DNA from: Candidatus Woesearchaeota archaeon
GTDB lineage: Archaea; Nanobdellota; Nanobdellia; Woesearchaeales; ARS49
Assembly (NCBI GenBank): GCA_038850615.1
Contig: JAWCLR010000002.1
Location: 1,798-65,797, forward strand
Direction: 5' to 3'
DNA: 64,000 bases
The notes beneath the pieces are model-generated. The model was not told the origin of the DNA and did not search any database. It saw nothing but the letters and a program-made list of their open reading frames with translations. Numbering within the stretch: the stretch's first letter is position 1; each line of letters begins with the position of its first letter. The translations under genes were made by a program, and so were the position numbers. Positions 34,499 to 52,023 of this stretch are shown piece after piece.

Positions 34499-35065
34499 AT
34501 GGGGATGTATGATTACATCGGCGAGTTGTGGAAGCAGCCGAAGCAAAAAATGCCTGCCCAGTACAGGCAGTATTTGATAAGCTGGAGGAAAGGCCCTGCT
34601 ACTGTCAGGCTTGAGCATCCGACAAGGCTTGACAGGGCGCGTTCGCTCGGTTACAGGGCAAAGCAGGGTATTCTTGTTGTGAGGCAGCGCGTTCCTGCAG
34701 GAGGGCACAAGCGCCCTGACTTTTCAGGAGGCAGGCATTCAAAGCACTTCCGCAGGACCCAGATTCTTTCAAAAAACTACAGGCTTATCGCAGAGGAGAG
34801 GGCAAACAGGAAGTTCCCAAACTGTGAGGTTCTTAATTCGTATTTCGTGGGTGGAGACAGCAAGCACTACTGGTATGAGGTCATCCTTGTGGACCGCGGA
34901 AGCCCTGTTGTTGCAAAGGATAGCCGGATTGGCTGGATTGCGAAGCCAAGCCAGAGGGGTCGCGTGTTCAGGGGAAGAACTTCTGCCGGAAGGAAGATTC
35001 GCGGACTGAGGCACAAGGGTAAGGGTGCCGAGAACCTGCGCCCGAGCAAGGACGCAAATAACTGA
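34499..35065 (+). CDS. rpl15e: 50S ribosomal protein L15e
   Basis: MGMYDYIGELWKQPK...RLDRARSLGYRAKQGILVVRQRV is typical of L15e. Confidence 0.95.
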   Translation: MGMYDYIGELWKQPKQKMPAQYRQYLISWRKGPATVRLEHPTRLDRARSLGYRAKQGILVVRQRVPAGGHKRPDFSGGRHSKHFRRTQILSKNYRLIAEERANRKFPNCEVLNSYFVGGDSKHYWYEVILVDRGSPVVAKDSRIGWIAKPSQRGRVFRGRTSAGRKIRGLRHKGKGAENLRPSKDANN

Positions 35066-35076
35066 GGGGATGAGCC

Positions 35077-35385
35077 ATGGCCACCAAGAGGGCAGCCAGA
35101 AGGAAAACAAGGCAGAGAGCGCCAAAGCGCAAAGTTTCCCACAAGGTTGTAGGCAGGCGCGCACACAAGCCGGAAAAAAAAGCTCCGCCAACGGAGACGA
35201 AGATGCAGGCTTTACTTCCGCCAATGGACAGGGAGCTTTTTGAGGAAGAGCCCAAGCCAAAGGATGATTTTTTCGACGAGGAAGAACTGAAGGAATTCAG
35301 CATTGTTGACGAGGAAGAAGGCGCGGACGAGGATTCTGGCGAGCATGCTGAGAGCGAGCCTGCCTGGGACGAAGAAGAATATTAG
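35077..35385 (+). CDS. bipartite basic/acidic small protein (102 aa)
   Basis: GAGGGGATGA lies upstream of the ATG. The N-terminal half is Arg/Lys-rich and the C-terminal half is Asp/Glu-rich. Confidence 0.6.
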   Translation: MATKRAARRKTRQRAPKRKVSHKVVGRRAHKPEKKAPPTETKMQALLPPMDRELFEEEPKPKDDFFDEEELKEFSIVDEEEGADEDSGEHAESEPAWDEEEY

Positions 35386-37599
35386 TTGTTCCTCTTGAGT
35401 GCTAACATTCCGAAGTTTTATAAATACCTGTATTCTAAATGCCCTTTCAAGGGGGAGTTGGGATTGGCATACAACAGGGATTTCGCAAGAAGCAACGGCT
35501 ATGCCGCAGGTCCTTATTCTCAAACTAAAGACCGCGCTCTTGACCTCGTCGTGGCTTCAGCAATATGCAGTGAACTGCTTTCTCCTGACGGGCGCTCTTA
35601 CGCTTCAAAGCCGCGTTACATCCTTGTTTCTGAGTGCGGCAAAACAAGGCGCCATCGCTTGCCACAATGGTATGACCCTCTTGTCAGGGGCGCTTTGGCA
35701 GCAGGGGGACTCCTCGTTGTGCTTTCAGGACCTGCCGGCGCGCAGGAAGTGAAGGAAAATGGTGCTGATGCTGCCCTTGATGCAGTACTGCAGGACCACC
35801 AGAACACAGAGGCAGACCTTGTAAAGAAGGCAGAAGAGGAATACCTGCGCGGCACTGTAGAGACTTTCTCTGTAGAACAGCGCAAGGTGTTTTTGAAGAA
35901 GGCTTTTGAGTTGCTTAATCGCGCAGAGGGGATGACTCCTGGCGTGCAGCATGAATGCCTGAGGGTGCAGGTGAACAATGCGTATGCCCGCATCGTGAAA
36001 GGCACGCTGTATTATGATTTGAGTGCTGAAGAACAGAAGCAGATTGACAAGGAACTCAGCGAGCCGGCTGCTGTGCCAAAACAGCCCCAAGCTCCACAGA
36101 CTCAGCCGCCTGAACAGTCGCCAAGCCAATCACAGCCTCCTGCTCAGACGCCTGAACAGCCTAAGCCTCCTCAGCAGCCTTCTGATCAGCAGTCTAAACA
36201 GCCTCCTGCTCAACCTCCAGCTCAGCCTCCTGTTCAGCCGCAGGCAGTGCCAGGGCAACTGATTCTTCCTGATAACCCTCTTTTCTGGTCAACAATTACT
36301 GCAGCCAGCTACAAGTCGTTGCAGACGCGGGAATCAGAGGCTGTGCTCAGGACAGGGCTTATTGATGTTTACGCGCAAGGCCACATAAGGAAGGACAAGG
36401 AGGAATTCAGCGGAGACAGGCGAAGGACGCAAGGCGCAGGCGGTCACGCATACCTTGACATTGGCTTTTTTGAAGCAGGCGCCACAGGCAGCTACAGCAA
36501 GTACCGCAGGGGCTCCAATGACAGCGACACGTCATCCTCTGGCGGGGTCACAATCACAACAAACACAGAGGTTCTTGAGGAGATAGAGCGCGAGTATCTT
36601 GCGCTTATGGCAGGATTCAGGTTTGGGGATTTCAGGATTCGCGGAACAGTCCGCAGTGCAACAGAAAAAAACAGCATTACGACAACAGTTGATAGCTTTG
36701 TTGACAGCCCTGACCCGATTGGCGATTATCATTTCAGAATAAATGATGAGAATGATTTTGACATCACAACTCGTGGAGCACAGGTCCTTTTCGGATACGA
36801 CTGGGCATTTAAGGAAGATGACCGCGTTTTGGACGCTATCAGGGCAAAGGCTGTTGGCGATGTTGAGGAGACGGAAATAGGGCTTAATGACACAAAATAC
36901 AGGACTTGGCGCGTTGATTTCATGCTTGACGCTCTGAGAAAGAATGCATTGTGGGGCGCGTCGGCGTCTGTCGGCACCCGCCTTATAGAAGACGCAGAAG
37001 AGCAGAGCAGGTACAGCCGCGTGCACGGCTCATTGAATGCAGCAGCAGACCTTGACGGCCTTTTGAGCGGAAAATTGGGAATTCCTGTTCCTGCCACGGT
37101 GTTTGGCTCATTCTGGCGCCTTGCCCAGCCGGGCGGGGGCGCAGGGCTTGTGATTGGCAAAGGCAATGCTGTGAAGCTCATGATGGATTATGCAAACCAG
37201 CGCGCATGGCACGAGCTCGAGCTCAGCAAGGAGCTTGGGCCTGAAGAGCGCAAGGTTAAAATGGACCTGCTGAATTATGACCTTTTGAGGGGTTTGACTG
37301 CTGATCCAAAACTGCGCCTGCTCCTGTTTGGAGGGGCGCGCAGGAATGAGGATGCTGGCGAGCACAAGTACGACTGGACAGCCCAGGCTGCGCTTGTACT
37401 GCCGGCAAGCAAGGATGTTGTTGTTGCTATTGACGGGCTGCGCGACAAGGTTGGCATTGAGGAAATAATCCGCGGAGGGCTCAGCGTGAAGCTGCCTGGC
37501 GGCTGGCGCTTTGGGTTCTGGGGCGGAAAGTACAAGGTGGATGGGGCAAAGCATGATGATGCGCCCATTTTCGGAATCAGCGGAGGGGTGGACTTTTAA
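35386..37599 (+). CDS. secreted PQ-rich protein with beta-barrel-like C-terminal half (start uncertain)
   Basis: Open frame of 737 codons. There is no in-frame ATG before aa ~182. TTG 35659 would give MPQWYDPLVRGALAAGGLLVVLSGPAGAQE, which looks like a signal peptide. PQ-rich tract at 36076-36250. The C-terminal ~430 aa has alternating-hydrophobic strands and ends in F. Confidence 0.75.
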   Translation: MFLLSANIPKFYKYLYSKCPFKGELGLAYNRDFARSNGYAAGPYSQTKDRALDLVVASAICSELLSPDGRSYASKPRYILVSECGKTRRHRLPQWYDPLVRGALAAGGLLVVLSGPAGAQEVKENGADAALDAVLQDHQNTEADLVKKAEEEYLRGTVETFSVEQRKVFLKKAFELLNRAEGMTPGVQHECLRVQVNNAYARIVKGTLYYDLSAEEQKQIDKELSEPAAVPKQPQAPQTQPPEQSPSQSQPPAQTPEQPKPPQQPSDQQSKQPPAQPPAQPPVQPQAVPGQLILPDNPLFWSTITAASYKSLQTRESEAVLRTGLIDVYAQGHIRKDKEEFSGDRRRTQGAGGHAYLDIGFFEAGATGSYSKYRRGSNDSDTSSSGGVTITTNTEVLEEIEREYLALMAGFRFGDFRIRGTVRSATEKNSITTTVDSFVDSPDPIGDYHFRINDENDFDITTRGAQVLFGYDWAFKEDDRVLDAIRAKAVGDVEETEIGLNDTKYRTWRVDFMLDALRKNALWGASASVGTRLIEDAEEQSRYSRVHGSLNAAADLDGLLSGKLGIPVPATVFGSFWRLAQPGGGAGLVIGKGNAVKLMMDYANQRAWHELELSKELGPEERKVKMDLLNYDLLRGLTADPKLRLLLFGGARRNEDAGEHKYDWTAQAALVLPASKDVVVAIDGLRDKVGIEEIIRGGLSVKLPGGWRFGFWGGKYKVDGAKHDDAPIFGISGGVDF

Positions 37600-37602
37600 G
37601 CC

Positions 37603-40600
37603 ATGAACAAGCTCTCAATTTTGTTTGCGGTTTTGATGGCGGTTTTTGCAGCGCAAGCCCTTGCCCTTGATGTTCCTCCTGCTGTGTCAATATCAGCAGC
37701 CCCCGGCACCATAGTAAATGATACTGTTGCAATAACTGCGGTTGCGGTTGATGTCATGGATAATGCAGGGCTTGTCAACATGACGCTTTACGAGGATGGC
37801 ATTATTGCTGATGTCCAGATATGCATGGCTGCCACAACCTGTTCGGTAAGCAGGGCATTCTCGTATGTTTCTGCAGCAAACCACACATATCATGCTGTTG
37901 CGATTGACGTCAGCGGCCACGTTGTTGAAAGCAACAAGGTTAAGGTAACCTTCTTGGGCATTAATACACCGCCGAAATGGATTAATCTTCCGACCAATGT
38001 TAATGTTTATGAGGACTCAGGGCTTAACCTGAATTTGATAAACCTCAGCGCATTTGCAAAGGACAACCAGACGCAGTCTGACAATCTCTCTTACGCAGTG
38101 ATTGCGGAAAGCAATGCAAGCCTTGTGAATTGTTCTGCAGGCCCAACGCGCTTCCTTGACTGCCGTGTCAATGCTGCAAACAGCTCAGGGGCATCTGTTG
38201 TTAATATAAGTGTCTCTGATGGCCAGCTCCATGATGAACGCCTTGTTACGGTTACCGTACTTCCTGTCAATGATGTTCCTTTCAACAACAGGACGCTTCC
38301 AATAATAGCATTCCCTGAGGACACTTACTTTGACCTGCTTAACCTTAGCAATTATTTCTTTGACATCGACGGTCCTGCAGCAATAACTTACTCGTTCATT
38401 ACAAACCCGAACACGACTGTTTTTGTGTCGCCTGGGGCAATCCTGAACATTTCGTCAACAAGAAATTATACGGGCCTGTTTGACCTGATAATAATTGCAT
38501 CAGACGGCCTAAACAGCACAAATATCACGACGCCTGTGAACGTGACACCTGTCAATGACGCGCCGTGGTTCAATCCACCTTTGCAGAACCAGATTGCATT
38601 TCTCGGAAGCGTGTTCACTTATGACATTAATGCAAGTGATGTTGACACGCCGACTATTTTCACTTTCAGCACGAACAGCAGCTCATTGTTTGCCATAGAC
38701 CCCGCAACAGGTCTTATCAACCACACTTTCCTTGCTGTCACAAACTATACTGTTAATGCAACAGTATGCGACGATGCAGGCCTGCCGAACAGCTGCGTAA
38801 GCGGCGAATTCAATATCACGGTGATTGACATTACGCCTCCAAGCGTTGTTGCAGTAATTGAGCCGCCAGACCCGTCTGTGTTCAGCGAGACTGCAAATTA
38901 CACGTTCTGGATAAACCTACTTGACTACAGCGGCGTTGCAAATGCCTCGCTTAATTTCAATGGCATTTTGTTCAATGATACGCAGAATGTCAGCAACAGC
39001 CTGTTCAATGCCACAATAGGCAACCTCGCAGCAGGGAATTACACGTACAGATGGCTGTTTGCGGATATTTACGGCAATGCAAACACAAGCCTGCTCCAGA
39101 ACTTCACAGTCCTTAAGGCAAACTCAAGCATCAATGCAACCCTTAACGGCACAGCAGGAAACATCACCCTATTCACAGGCGTGCCTATTGAGATTTATTC
39201 CTGGCTTGACATCCCTGAAGGACAGCCGATTAGCTTGTTCCAGAACGGCGTCCTGATAGGAAGTGGCAACGGCTCAATTAACCTGACAAGGTATTATAAT
39301 AGGTCTTACGCTGGTCTTGTCAATCTTACCTCGGTTTATAGCGGGAACCAGAATTACACAAACGCAAGCATAACAAGATATGTTAATGTTATTGTTTCAA
39401 ACTCAACGGTTAACATGCTCTTGAATGGTGTTGATGGGAATATCACTGCAGGGACTGGTGATGTTGTTAATTTCAGCTTCACTGTTTCGCCACCTGGCTT
39501 GCTTTTGACTTTCTGCGTTAACGGGTTTGGTGTTAGTCGCTGTGATTTTGAGAACGCAACTTCAACAGGCTATGTCTCTTGGCTTGATCTTGTTTGGGTT
39601 GATCGTATTGGAATATTCAATATTACGGCGTATTACGATGGCAATGAGAATTACACTGTTTCAACTGACACGCACTTCATTAAGGTTGTTGACACAATTC
39701 CGCCAAATATGTATTATAATTCCACAACGCCCGCATCGCCCAAGACGTATTCTGATGTCGTGCTTAACCAGTTCTTCAGCCGCTGGCAGGACAATATCAA
39801 GGTTGACACGGTCCTGCTTGAGTTTGAGGGTGTAAACAGGACGGCGAATATCACGCTGTACGGAGATTATTACGTGAATATCCTGCCAGACGCGCTTGGA
39901 GTAGGAAACTATTCTTACAAGTGGTATGCGAATGACACGAGCAACAACTGGAATGTTTCACCGACAGGCATTTACACAATAGTTCCTGCACCATCATCGC
40001 TTTCGCTCAGCGTGTCGCCAGCAAGCACTGTTATTATCGGCACTTCAACAACAGTTGGCTGCAATGCTTCAACAACGCAAATAACCCCTATTTTGGCAAG
40101 GAATGGTGTTGTTGTCAGCAATCCTGACACTTCAGCGCTTGCTGTCGGCGTGTACAATTATTCCTGCACTGCTGCCGCAACCCAGAACTACACAGCGCCC
40201 GCACCTGTATCAGCAATGCTTACGGTCATTCCGACTCCTGCAACAGTTAACCTGCTCCTTAATGGCACTGATGGAGACATTCTTGTGCCTGAGAACAGCA
40301 CTGTGAACATTACGGGAATGCTTGTAACTCCAAGCACAGGCAACGTAGACATTTATGTTAATGGCACTCTTGTTGCTTCTGGGGCGTCTCCGCAGTCAGC
40401 ATTGAGGTTCTTTGGCAATCCAGGGGCTTATCCTGTCATTGTTAACTTCACTGGCAACGTGAACTACAGCACTGCAAGCGAAACGCACTACGTTTTTGTC
40501 GGCGAGAACCTTGTCAAGTACAACTTCCAACCGCCCAATGGCGCATTCCTGAACGCAAGTTATGTTGATATGAACTTCAGCACAAACCTGAACACAACTT

Positions 40601-42393
40601 GCAGGTGGGCGCTTACAGACTTGCCATATGGCGCAATGACTAACACGTTCAATGGCGTGCTCACTTTCCATTACGGCAGGGTGACGGGGCTTGAGCCATT
40701 AGGACTGCATACTATTTATGTTGCCTGTGAGAATGACACTGCAGCAACAAACACGGAAATAACATACGATGTGACTAACATAATTGAGAACTCTAACATT
40801 GATACTGCATTTATTGACTGGAGCATTGTCAGGTGGGTCAATATCACGCCTGCTACAAGCATTTTCGACAGCGAACTGTATTATGACAGGATTCTCAACA
40901 GCAACCTTGGCTCGATATATGCCGAGCATTCCCTGATAAACAACAGCTTCCTGACAAACTGCATTGTCATCAATTCAACAGTGAAAGACATCATTGCAAG
41001 CGAGTGCATATTCATAAACAGCGTTGTTGACCCGAGCAACCTTACAGGAAGCAACCTTTCAAACACGTTGACGCTTGACTCCAATGTCACGTGGTCGACT
41101 GCTGTTGACTCAATGATTGACCTCAGTACGGTAGAGGACTCAATAGTGGTTGATTGCACAATAAACCGCTCAACAATCCGCAACGGCGTGCTTATGCACT
41201 GTAGTGTCAGGAACAACTCAAATGTCCTTGACAGCGTCGTTAACAACACAGTTCTTGTTAACACAAACCTGACCAATTCGACGATAACCAACAGCAACCT
41301 GAACTGCGTCAACGGCGCAGGGGTTTACGTTGACAACAACATCCTGATTGACGGGAACATCACTGTGTGCACAGGTGCTGTTGTTTACAATCTTTCAAAC
41401 AACAACACCAACATTACTAACTACATGGAATTGCCGCCCGTTGCATCATTTACGCTTTCCCCTGGTTCGTCCGTGTACACGGGCACAAATGTTACTTTCA
41501 CATCAACAAGCACAGACCCGAACATTCCAGGACCTCTTAATGATTCTTTGACTTACTTGTGGAGGTTCAGCGACGGAACCACGTCAACATCTGCGGTTAC
41601 GTCAAAGGTTTATGACACTGCAGGAACTTTCCCGTTCAACCTCACAGTGACTGACTCCTTTGGCATGTCAAGCACTGCCTTTGGTATAATAACAGCAAGC
41701 GTTTATGTGCCGCCAAGCGGCGGTGGCGGTGGGGGTGGCGGCGGAGGCGGCAGAGGCGGCGGAAGTGGCATCGGCAGGGTGTTCTACTACAACCTGAGCA
41801 AGGGCAAAACGCAATTAATGACCCTTGGCCAGCTTGACAGCCTGCTGATAGAATACAATGATGTGGTTTATCCGCTCGAGAACATAAGGATTGCCAGAGA
41901 CCACGCTAACTTCACGATTACAGGAAGGCAGTCAAGGATGATTCCTGCCGAGGTGCGCAAGTACAACCTCAACAACGACCAGTATTATGACCTTGTGATC
42001 ACGTTTACAAAGAACTATGTAACAAGGGCGGAGTTCAAGCTTGAGCCCACTCACGAATACGCGCCTGGCATGAATGTCTTGCCATTGCCCTCCAGTCTCG
42101 AAAAATGGGAGCCAAAGGCGCCTGAGCCTGTTGCTCCTGCAGAGCCTAAGCCTGCTGTCCAGCCTTCAGCACCTGTTGTGCAACCGCCTGCTGCGTCAGG
42201 GCAGGAGGTTGAAATCAGGGCAGAGGTCAAGCCAGGATTGTTAAGCAGGCTGTGGAATTCCACAAAGGGCATAACAGGCAGCATCACAGCAGGCGCTGGC
42301 AGCATTCAGCTCAGCGGCTGGATGATAACCCTGCTCGTGGTTGTGTTCGGCGTGGTTCTGTATTATGTCCTGGCAGAATTGTTTGACTGGTAA
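37603..42393 (+). CDS. giant N-glycosylation-sequon-rich surface protein (1596 aa) with PKD domain, beta-helix-like repeats and C-terminal TM anchor
   Basis: Signal peptide MNKLSILFAVLMAVFAAQALA. VNDVPF / VNDAPWF cadherin-like junctions. PKD-like segment at ~41434-41700. Gly run at 41716-41769. Pro-rich stalk. TM helix MITLLVVVFGVVLYYVLAELF. Starts 3 nt after the upstream stop. Confidence 0.9.
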   Translation: MNKLSILFAVLMAVFAAQALALDVPPAVSISAAPGTIVNDTVAITAVAVDVMDNAGLVNMTLYEDGIIADVQICMAATTCSVSRAFSYVSAANHTYHAVAIDVSGHVVESNKVKVTFLGINTPPKWINLPTNVNVYEDSGLNLNLINLSAFAKDNQTQSDNLSYAVIAESNASLVNCSAGPTRFLDCRVNAANSSGASVVNISVSDGQLHDERLVTVTVLPVNDVPFNNRTLPIIAFPEDTYFDLLNLSNYFFDIDGPAAITYSFITNPNTTVFVSPGAILNISSTRNYTGLFDLIIIASDGLNSTNITTPVNVTPVNDAPWFNPPLQNQIAFLGSVFTYDINASDVDTPTIFTFSTNSSSLFAIDPATGLINHTFLAVTNYTVNATVCDDAGLPNSCVSGEFNITVIDITPPSVVAVIEPPDPSVFSETANYTFWINLLDYSGVANASLNFNGILFNDTQNVSNSLFNATIGNLAAGNYTYRWLFADIYGNANTSLLQNFTVLKANSSINATLNGTAGNITLFTGVPIEIYSWLDIPEGQPISLFQNGVLIGSGNGSINLTRYYNRSYAGLVNLTSVYSGNQNYTNASITRYVNVIVSNSTVNMLLNGVDGNITAGTGDVVNFSFTVSPPGLLLTFCVNGFGVSRCDFENATSTGYVSWLDLVWVDRIGIFNITAYYDGNENYTVSTDTHFIKVVDTIPPNMYYNSTTPASPKTYSDVVLNQFFSRWQDNIKVDTVLLEFEGVNRTANITLYGDYYVNILPDALGVGNYSYKWYANDTSNNWNVSPTGIYTIVPAPSSLSLSVSPASTVIIGTSTTVGCNASTTQITPILARNGVVVSNPDTSALAVGVYNYSCTAAATQNYTAPAPVSAMLTVIPTPATVNLLLNGTDGDILVPENSTVNITGMLVTPSTGNVDIYVNGTLVASGASPQSALRFFGNPGAYPVIVNFTGNVNYSTASETHYVFVGENLVKYNFQPPNGAFLNASYVDMNFSTNLNTTCRWALTDLPYGAMTNTFNGVLTFHYGRVTGLEPLGLHTIYVACENDTAATNTEITYDVTNIIENSNIDTAFIDWSIVRWVNITPATSIFDSELYYDRILNSNLGSIYAEHSLINNSFLTNCIVINSTVKDIIASECIFINSVVDPSNLTGSNLSNTLTLDSNVTWSTAVDSMIDLSTVEDSIVVDCTINRSTIRNGVLMHCSVRNNSNVLDSVVNNTVLVNTNLTNSTITNSNLNCVNGAGVYVDNNILIDGNITVCTGAVVYNLSNNNTNITNYMELPPVASFTLSPGSSVYTGTNVTFTSTSTDPNIPGPLNDSLTYLWRFSDGTTSTSAVTSKVYDTAGTFPFNLTVTDSFGMSSTAFGIITASVYVPPSGGGGGGGGGGGRGGGSGIGRVFYYNLSKGKTQLMTLGQLDSLLIEYNDVVYPLENIRIARDHANFTITGRQSRMIPAEVRKYNLNNDQYYDLVITFTKNYVTRAEFKLEPTHEYAPGMNVLPLPSSLEKWEPKAPEPVAPAEPKPAVQPSAPVVQPPAASGQEVEIRAEVKPGLLSRLWNSTKGITGSITAGAGSIQLSGWMITLLVVVFGVVLYYVLAELFDW

Positions 42394-42394
42394 T

Positions 42395-42751
42395 TCAGCC
42401 AAGATAAGTCGGAGTTTCTGATACTGTGTCTTTTGCAGCAGCAATTGCCTTTTTGTGCTTTTTTTCAGCAATCTCAACAGGCTTTGGCTTCTTTATCACG
42501 CCATATTCTTCCTCATATTTTTTTATCACGTTGCTGAGCACTCCGAGAATCATTTTTGCATGGTATGGCTCGACCATTATTACGTTGTGCTTGAGCAGGA
42601 AGCTTGGCTTCTTGCTTCGTGGGTCAACCCTTGGCGTAATGCACTTGAAGTCAAAGCTGAATTGCGTTGGTGTGAAGTTAGCAGTCATTTCGTGGGCGAA
42701 AAAAGGCTCGCCGTCAATTATCTGGATGTTTATTGGTTCCTTGTCAGGCAT
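42395..42751 (-). CDS. DUF3467-like protein
   Basis: FAHEMTANFTPTQFSFDFKCITP resembles the conserved DUF3467 core. The C-terminal tail is Lys-rich. Confidence 0.7.
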   Translation of the reverse strand: MPDKEPINIQIIDGEPFFAHEMTANFTPTQFSFDFKCITPRVDPRSKKPSFLLKHNVIMVEPYHAKMILGVLSNVIKKYEEEYGVIKKPKPVEIAEKKHKKAIAAAKDTVSETPTYLG

Positions 42752-42808
42752 TTGTTACCACCTCTTTTTGTGGTTTTTAATAATTACTTAATATGCCTTT
42801 CTTTTTTT

Positions 42809-51906: not shown

Positions 51907-52023
51907 GGGGCTGTAGTCTAGCTTGGTAGGACACACCCTTGGGGTCCCTTTGGTGTCAGGCATCCTGCCTTTGGCGTCAGGGCGAATCTGGGTGTAGCCC
52001 GGGTTCAAATCCTGGCAGCCCCA
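51907..52023 (+). tRNA. tRNA-Pro (anticodon GGG) with 44-nt intron at 37/38
   Basis: Acceptor GGGGCTG/CAGCCCC. D-arm GTCT-AGCTTGGTA-GGAC. Anticodon stem CACCC...GGGTG, interrupted after TTGGGG (intron 51945-51988). T-loop TTCAAAT. TTTTATAAG about 30 nt upstream. Confidence 0.85.

Follow-up and report, generated by a model that had tools for sequence, protein, structure and literature searches.

We analysed 64,000 nucleotides of the Candidatus Woesearchaeota archaeon assembly GCA_038850615.1 (contig JAWCLR010000002.1, positions 1,798 to 65,797 of the forward strand; this whole stretch is called the window, and positions are counted from its first letter). The window contains, at 35464-37599 on the forward strand, a gene for a 711-residue protein whose C-terminal domain is predicted to form a beta-barrel of about 20 strands, of the type known from bacterial outer membranes. 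The gene is archaeal, belongs to a family with conserved synteny and is followed by the gene of a giant surface glycoprotein. A preliminary description, made from the DNA letters alone, had proposed an outer-membrane-barrel-like protein at this place, and the AlphaFold2 model, the structural matches obtained with Foldseek and the conserved synteny now support such a protein in an archaeal genome. On balance we lean towards a stalked, membrane-tethered, porin-like barrel of the outermost cell layer that works with the giant glycoprotein.

Transmembrane beta-barrels are regarded as characteristic of outer membranes, those of diderm bacteria as well as those of mitochondria and plastids, and we know of no outer-membrane-type beta-barrel established in archaea. 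The features of the gene are the following.

35410-35426, forward strand: archaeal promoter, made of the TATA box TTTTATAAATA and, ahead of it, a BRE-like (B recognition element-like) CCGAAG; almost unchanged across 5 loci though intergenic
35451-35457, forward strand: Shine-Dalgarno-like GGGGGAG, 6 nucleotides 5' of the start codon; invariant in 5 loci
35464-37599, forward strand: coding sequence of the 711-residue protein, with a TTG start and a TAA/TAG-type stop at 37597-37599
35464-35679, forward strand: N-terminal extension of 72 residues (1-72), presumably cytoplasmic, ending in a conserved RRHRLPQWYDP; supported by in-frame indels and by dN/dS (the ratio of nonsynonymous to synonymous substitution rates)
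35680-35745, forward strand: single, weakly hydrophobic segment LVRGALAAGGLLVVLSGPAGAQ (residues 73-94), followed by AGA/QE; the sole hydrophobic peak (Kyte-Doolittle, 19-residue window, 1.59)
35746-36063, forward strand: charged helical region by composition (residues 95-200, 33% charged), repeated in relatives with varying length and sequence
36064-36252, forward strand: spacer rich in Pro and Gln, 63 residues (201-263), recognised by composition; its length differs among relatives
36253-37596, forward strand: C-terminal domain of 448 residues, predicted as a beta-barrel of about 20 strands of bacterial outer-membrane type (AlphaFold2, Foldseek, strand pattern)
37159-37314, forward strand: predicted helical hairpin between strands 14 and 15 (model helices 307-321 and 330-348), in family alignments the best-conserved segment (MDY...AW...LGPEERKVY)
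37561-37596, forward strand: predicted last strand APIFGISGGVDF (model strand 437-447), with a C-terminal Phe and resembling a beta-signal

Predicted fold of the C-terminal domain

The C-terminal domain was modelled with AlphaFold2 from an alignment of 17 sequences. The mean predicted local distance difference test score (pLDDT) was 85.9 (80-86 for the five models) and the predicted template modelling score (pTM) was 0.80, while only 5 close sequences gave a pLDDT of 29 and an unusable model. The model comprises 20 antiparallel strands, each linked by a hairpin to the next, and one helical hairpin besides. Four strands, at domain residues 73-185, are long, with 24-27 residues each. A sandwich or a solenoid would have spoken against a barrel; the model is neither, and its strands, about 20 in number, lie antiparallel next to their neighbours.

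Comparison of the model with the Protein Data Bank (PDB) by Foldseek gave 154 matches at E <= 1e-3. The best 50 were all bacterial outer-membrane barrels, with a probability of 1.00 (FpvA, Fiu, BtuB, PfeA, LptD, CdiB) and a sequence identity of 6-10%. The top matches in a library of viral structures (BFVD) were likewise outer-membrane barrels. On the strength of the model we consider the prediction of a barrel-like C-terminal domain to be confident, and a soluble beta-rich protein that mimics the pattern to be unlikely.

A related possibility is that the barrel is an artefact of AlphaFold, produced by a repetitive beta-hairpin sequence, and that the protein is an ordinary stalked surface protein with a soluble beta-rich fold (a sandwich, a solenoid or an open sheet). 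The confidence of all five models argues against this, as do the even number of strands, the linkage of all successive strands by hairpins, the dominance of closed barrels among the significant Foldseek matches, and the significant periodicity of the family profile described below. In its favour are the shallowness of the alignment, the failure of the 5-sequence model, the weak alternation in the single sequence, and the fact that closure between strand 1 and strand 20 was not seen. Taken together, these data make an artefact quite unlikely.

Alternating strands and C-terminal signal

Further evidence for a membrane barrel was obtained from the sequences. The open reading frame 35386-37599 on the forward strand is present as the preliminary description had it, and RGALAAGGLLVVLSGPAGAQE is found within it. 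That description had also claimed a pattern of strands with alternating hydrophobic residues. In the single sequence, the period-2 hydrophobic moment was weakly above that of shuffled sequences (z = 1.9); in the profile of the 19-member family it was significant (z = 3.3-3.8), the observed value being reached by 0-2 of 2000 shuffles. The pattern thus stands at the level of the family and is weak in the protein taken alone. The spectral peaks of the family profile were at periods 2.07-2.24, and helical periodicity was depleted.

At least four alternating, conserved, uncharged positions, either hydrophobic or Gly, were present in 15 of the 20 strands, and the positions between them were often Arg, Asp, Lys or Glu. 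We infer that the uncharged face points outward, because a hydrophobic lining of a 20-stranded barrel is implausible unless the barrel holds lipid. Each of the long strands has its uncharged run at one end and is polar elsewhere; the four of them would therefore form a four-stranded projection opposite the termini. The conserved helical hairpin is one of the long loops found at the termini's side.

The protein ends, as previously reported, in PIFGISGGVDF with a terminal Phe. An aromatic end is a trait of the family: the last residue is F or W in 12 of the 19 members, and the others have an aromatic residue 4-5 residues from the end. A C-terminal beta-signal ending in an aromatic residue, as in bacterial outer-membrane barrels, is therefore present.

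Gene model

No ATG stands in frame ahead of the hydrophobic segment, in agreement with the preliminary description, which had proposed TTG 35659 as the start codon. This proposal had to be abandoned, since relatives have TTA or CTG at that position. Position 35386 was also rejected as the start: it is merely the first TTG past the stop codon of the upstream gene, and the stretch that follows carries the promoter and the Shine-Dalgarno sequence. In an alignment of the upstream DNA of the window with that of four related loci, TTG 35464 was invariant. A stop codon is found 8 codons 5' of it in 4 of the 5 loci, no stop codon interrupts the frame between this TTG and the hydrophobic segment in any of the 5, and gene callers place the start of three homologues (P0001, P0002 and P0004) at the equivalent TTG. 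All indels in the N-terminal extension are multiples of three (5 loci), and its dN/dS is 0.10-0.37 (residues 2-72), as compared to 0.17-0.23 for the C-terminal domain. Because of the conserved promoter, Shine-Dalgarno sequence and TTG, the upstream stops, the in-frame indels and the dN/dS, we assign the gene to 35464-37599 (711 residues) and conclude that the N-terminal 72 residues are translated and, judging from codon comparisons, under purifying selection. An RNA element was considered for the conserved stretch 35386-35680 and discarded: Rfam gave no match, and the codon analysis indicated that the DNA is coding from 35464 on.

Tail, anchor and stalk

A motif of the RRHRLPQWYDP type was found again in the distant members P0006 and P0007. 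The sequence TRRHRL resembles a twin-arginine signal, and export by the twin-arginine translocation (Tat) pathway was considered; the RR pair is conserved in neither P0006 nor P0007, and this candidate was rejected.

The segment LVRGALAAGGLLVVLSGPAGAQ is predicted to be a signal-anchor, or a signal peptide with a cleavage site of the AGA/QE type. The signal-peptide-like segment of the preliminary description is thus present, but it is preceded by the conserved coding extension of 72 residues, which is atypical of bacterial outer-membrane proteins. Every full-length member of the family has one such hydrophobic segment. In 7 of 25 members (P0006, P0007, P0009, P0010, P0013, P0023 and P0024) it is followed by a lipobox-like L-[AS]-[AGS]-C, the Cys of which points to a lipid anchor in part of the family. 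More than 100 residues stand ahead of the hydrophobic segment in several of these 7, an odd pairing for a lipoprotein signal; across the family, several members have 100-150 residues there.

The spacer rich in Pro and Gln was found as announced, with 35% Pro and 29% Gln. The full-length members share the same layout, i.e., a hydrophobic segment, then a variable stalk that is helical and Pro-rich, and about 430 residues of C-terminal domain. The 711-residue protein has 2 N-glycosylation sequons.

Family and archaeal origin

Close homologues were few: four in a word-indexed search of 5.8 billion proteins. An exhaustive HMMER search with the C-terminal domain against 1.84 billion representative proteins gave 18 clusters at E <= 1e-3, a profile word search gave only 7 proteins, and a metagenome scan retrieved only the known locus. 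Neither the window protein nor the 19 family members matched Pfam, NCBIfam, PHROGs or the sequences of the PDB, and homology to a described outer-membrane protein family was not found in these searches. There was no paralogue in the window or in the related loci that were compared, and no description of this protein family was found in the literature searched. From sequence comparisons, the protein thus appears to found a new, small family, which has to date been met in Woesearchaeota alone. In one locus (L008, 8625-11365) the barrel homologue is present as two overlapping open reading frames (471 and 543 residues), owing to a frameshift, a pseudogene or an assembly error.

All members whose locus or source was examined are archaeal (P0006-P0012, P0014, P0016, P0017, P0020 and P0022 were not traced). 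The carriers among species-representative genomes are labelled Candidatus Woesearchaeota or Nanoarchaeia, and P0013 comes from a metagenome-assembled genome of Woesearchaeota. A locus labelled uncultured Methanosarcinales archaeon (L007, CAYGVI010000001.1) has the same order of rpl15e, small gene, barrel gene and giant gene; the label or the binning is probably wrong.

A gene for about 95 residues, the barrel gene and the giant gene (1250-1909 residues) have the same order in every locus compared, and where the sequence covered extends far enough, rpl15e stands immediately ahead of them. This synteny is kept in at least 10 independent assemblies, even where the barrel domains are only 24-26% identical. 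The window sequence was found in four hot-spring metagenome runs, and contigs from three of them span both junctions of the gene with zero differences. The preliminary description had left room for a contig made chimeric by bacterial DNA and for acquisition of the gene from bacteria. The recurring synteny and the bridging contigs lead us to reject both chimerism and a recent bacterial acquisition; no bacterial homologues were found, and inheritance was vertical and syntenic within Woesearchaeota.

The arguments for a bacterial gene, whether recently acquired or mis-assembled, are a GC (guanine plus cytosine) content of 0.51-0.53, compared with about 0.46 nearby, and a fold that is otherwise bacterial. 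The raised GC content can be ascribed to the coding stretch rich in Pro and Gln. A bacterial gene would furthermore have to be reconciled with the same archaeal neighbours in all those assemblies, with an archaeal TATA promoter, with the difference-free junctions in three samples and with the lack of any bacterial homologue in the 1.84 billion representatives, Pfam, NCBIfam and the PDB sequences. We therefore regard this explanation as extremely improbable.

The adjacent giant gene

In every locus examined, a giant gene lies directly 3' of the barrel gene. In the window it is as follows.

37603-42393, forward strand: obligate partner gene, 3 nucleotides downstream of the barrel gene, for a surface glycoprotein of 1596 residues; signal peptide, PKD domain, 88 N-X-S/T sequons, Pro-rich stalk, transmembrane anchor at the C terminus

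Homology among the giant proteins was confirmed for four loci (L005, L006, L010 and L011), whose giants showed 43-80% identity when checked against the one in the window. A convergent gene of the DUF3467 family (117-119 residues) was found directly after the giant gene, in the window in the region 42394-42760 and in at least 4 loci (L001, L003, L004 and L011).

The strict pairing with a giant glycoprotein of the surface-layer (S-layer) type, containing immunoglobulin (Ig) and PKD domains, bears on another explanation, namely that the barrel is real but sits in no lipid membrane. The barrels, packed next to one another or against the giant glycoprotein, would then be structural units of a surface layer made of protein alone, and their uncharged Ala/Gly-rich face would make protein-protein contacts. 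The closest parallel to such a layer is the protein-rich 'toga' of Thermotoga. In favour of this explanation, the residues of the belt are mostly small (Ala and Gly). S-layers are also present in the cultivated DPANN archaea that have been studied by electron microscopy; in Nanobdella, the putative S-layer protein is glycosylated and has an Ig fold (bioRxiv 10.1101/2023.10.27.564410). In contrast, no archaeal S-layer protein is known to be a large barrel of the outer-membrane type, and an alternation with a charged opposite face, together with an aromatic residue at the end, is what distinguishes membrane barrels. We consider a protein-only layer, as well as the contacts that it implies for the uncharged face, to be unlikely.

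A divergent cassette

Comparison of the window with the closely related locus L011 revealed an abrupt loss of similarity around the barrel gene. The neighbouring proteins are 86-95% identical in amino acids (DNA ligase, 95%; a 310-residue protein, 91%; L15e, 89%), whereas the identity is only 26% for the barrel protein and 62% for the giant. The DNA of the two loci is 88% identical as far as 34256 and 79% identical as far as 35430, a position on the 3' edge of the TATA box. Between 35430 and 38152 (corresponding to L011 8379-10974) no similarity could be detected, and past 38152 the identity is 73%. The gap in similarity thus runs from the barrel promoter to about 550 nucleotides inside the giant gene. 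The more distant locus L005 shows a uniform DNA identity of 78-82% over the same region. This abrupt loss between close genomes indicates that two deep allelic classes exist and are exchanged as a cassette. Cassette exchange is characteristic of surface-exposed proteins on which viruses or hosts exert pressure, and the replacement would mark the barrel gene as a target of strong diversifying pressure.

Cassette replacement between near-identical genomes is also what would be expected of genes involved in host interaction or acting as virus receptors. It may therefore be asked whether the barrel acts on a host: held on a long flexible stalk, it would insert into the host membrane, or extract lipids from it, where the two cells touch, functioning as a feeding pore or as a vessel for scavenged lipids. 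DPANN archaea are generally without lipid synthesis of their own, and the large variation of stalk length among members would also suit such a role. Spontaneous insertion of large monomeric barrels into foreign membranes is not known, the dN/dS of about 0.2 within the close group denotes purifying selection, and no host is known for the lineage. We find a host-directed role very unlikely.

Comparison with known systems

The best structural matches are TonB-dependent transporters, which have 22 strands (FpvA, BtuB, PfeA and FepA; Foldseek E 7e-8 to 2e-5, probability 1.00). These proteins are large antiparallel meander barrels with strands that extend on one side, and the same is predicted for the window protein. 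Unlike the transporters, the window protein has no plug (PF07715), TonB box or PF00593, with no Pfam match even at E <= 5; it also differs by its archaeal origin, its N-terminal tether and stalk, its spacer rich in Pro and Gln ahead of the barrel, and a count of about 20 strands instead of 22.

In overall layout, it resembles OmpM of Negativicutes and SlpA of Deinococcus-Thermus, which are made of an SLH domain, a coiled-coil stalk and a C-terminal outer-membrane barrel. In both cases an N-terminal anchor, an extended stalk and a C-terminal porin-like barrel would allow one polypeptide to bridge an inner and an outer layer. There is no sequence similarity between them. The anchor of the window protein is a membrane segment or a lipobox, with no match to the peptidoglycan-binding SLH domain, and its stalk is formed of helical repeats and the Pro/Gln spacer rather than of a trimeric coiled coil.

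As in two-partner secretion (TPS; CdiB/CdiA), the barrel gene adjoins the gene of a giant exoprotein with a beta-helix-like block, and CdiB ranked 34th among the Foldseek matches. Unlike TpsB/Omp85 proteins, the barrel has no POTRA domain and about 20 strands rather than 16, and neither of the two proteins matched PF01103, PF07244, PF03865 or PF05860. Unlike TpsA, the giant is without a TPS domain and keeps a C-terminal membrane anchor, and for this reason it would not be released by a translocator in the manner of TPS.

A further, possible parallel is with SlaA and SlaB of Sulfolobales, also encoded by adjacent, co-oriented genes: one protein is very large and glycosylated and forms the canopy, and the smaller one is a stalk anchored in the membrane. 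SlaB has a C-terminal anchor, beta-sandwich domains and a coiled coil. The barrel and giant genes are adjacent and co-oriented in all loci, and the giant has 88 sequons, but the orientation of the anchor and the folds are unlike those of SlaB: the smaller protein is anchored at its N terminus and ends in a barrel. The large protein is moreover self-anchored, and no sequence similarity was found.

The archaeal pore protein Ihomp1/Imp1227 is a small alpha-helical protein, as opposed to the beta-barrel predicted here, and is unrelated to it in sequence and in lineage. This constituent of the outermost membrane of Ignicoccus, the one archaeal outer membrane that is well studied, is the only well-documented pore protein of its kind in archaea (PMC4243693; bioRxiv 10.64898/2026.09.08.750209). 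A possible porin-like relative has been mentioned in Altiarchaeales (PMC12228718). Double membranes have been reported in Ignicoccus, in ARMAN (archaeal Richmond Mine acidophilic nanoorganisms), in the SM1 euryarchaeon and in Methanomassiliicoccus (PMC4243693); a 2026 preprint accepts a double membrane for Ignicoccus only (bioRxiv 10.64898/2026.09.08.750209).

Proposed arrangement at the cell surface

From the data presented above we infer the topology of the protein, its location, a pore function and a partnership with the giant. The short N-terminal tail would stay in the cytoplasm, and the hydrophobic segment, or in some members the lipobox-like Cys, would tether the protein to the cytoplasmic membrane. 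The stalk, which differs in length among members and consists of helical repeats and the spacer rich in Pro and Gln, would project outward and carry the barrel of about 20 strands, with one conserved, uncharged face and one polar, charged face. Four strands would reach past the belt opposite the termini, and the conserved helical hairpin would lie on the side of the termini. The barrel gene would be driven by its own TATA promoter. The heavily N-glycosylated giant, encoded 3 nucleotides further on, would be anchored at its C terminus via a similar Pro-rich stalk, and the two stalks may set both bodies at a similar distance from the membrane. The barrel would then be located in the outermost layer, be it a lipid-containing outer sheath or a protein canopy, and might serve as a porin-like channel, as an anchoring point for the giant, or as both.

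Several observations weigh against this arrangement. Ala and Gly, in place of Leu, Val or Phe, abound on the uncharged face, and the C-terminal domain (11.6% Gly) contains 27.5% charged residues. The Foldseek TM-scores (template modelling scores) are modest (0.26-0.46). Bacterial outer-membrane proteins have a short cleavable Sec signal at the extreme N terminus and, once mature, no inner-membrane anchor; the conserved extension ahead of the hydrophobic segment and the predicted membrane tether are foreign to them. The wide variation in stalk length across members is a poor fit to a fixed distance between two membranes. As to expression, the runs listed with the gene are all DNA runs, with no RNA run among them. 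Finally, we know of no archaeal machinery for the insertion of barrels, nor, to our knowledge, has an outer membrane been shown for Woesearchaeota.

A more specific form of the proposal is that a clade of Woesearchaeota has a second, lipid-containing outer layer with a native family of beta-barrels, independent in origin of the bacterial outer-membrane proteins or diverged from them past recognition, tethered at the N terminus and assembled without the beta-barrel assembly machinery (BAM). We put this forward tentatively, as possible but doubtful; if it is true, transmembrane beta-barrels are not exclusive to bacteria and organelles. Apart from this proposal, a conserved, vertically inherited family of DPANN archaea with such a barrel prediction would provide a molecular handle on whether some ultra-small archaea have an outer membrane or sheath, and would pose the problem of how so large a barrel comes together with no BAM. 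The barrel and the giant are likely to be the main surface components of Woesearchaeota, and likely to form their interface with hosts and viruses.

Neighbouring genes

Two genes precede the barrel gene in the window.

34499-35065: archaeal rpl15e (Pfam E = 7e-64)
35077-35385, forward strand: 102-residue protein, the constant upstream neighbour, extremely basic in its N-terminal half and acidic in its C-terminal half; in every locus listed this place is taken by a gene of similar size

The 102-residue protein had a BLASTP match in 5 of the 6 loci tested, the one without a match, L013, being the most distant of them; no family match was found for it. Its gene may have its role with the ribosome and not with the envelope. 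We do not count it as part of the barrel/giant system, from which the barrel gene's own predicted promoter separates it.

Two minor observations were made further from the barrel gene. In two related loci (L010, 1544-4101; L014, 3209-5736), a gene with a CHASE2 and a guanylate/adenylate cyclase domain is found beside a FecR-like gene, near the barrel locus; these domain families are known mainly from bacteria. In the window, a 117-nucleotide tRNA match is present at 51907-52023, long enough to accommodate an intron, which fits an archaeal genome.

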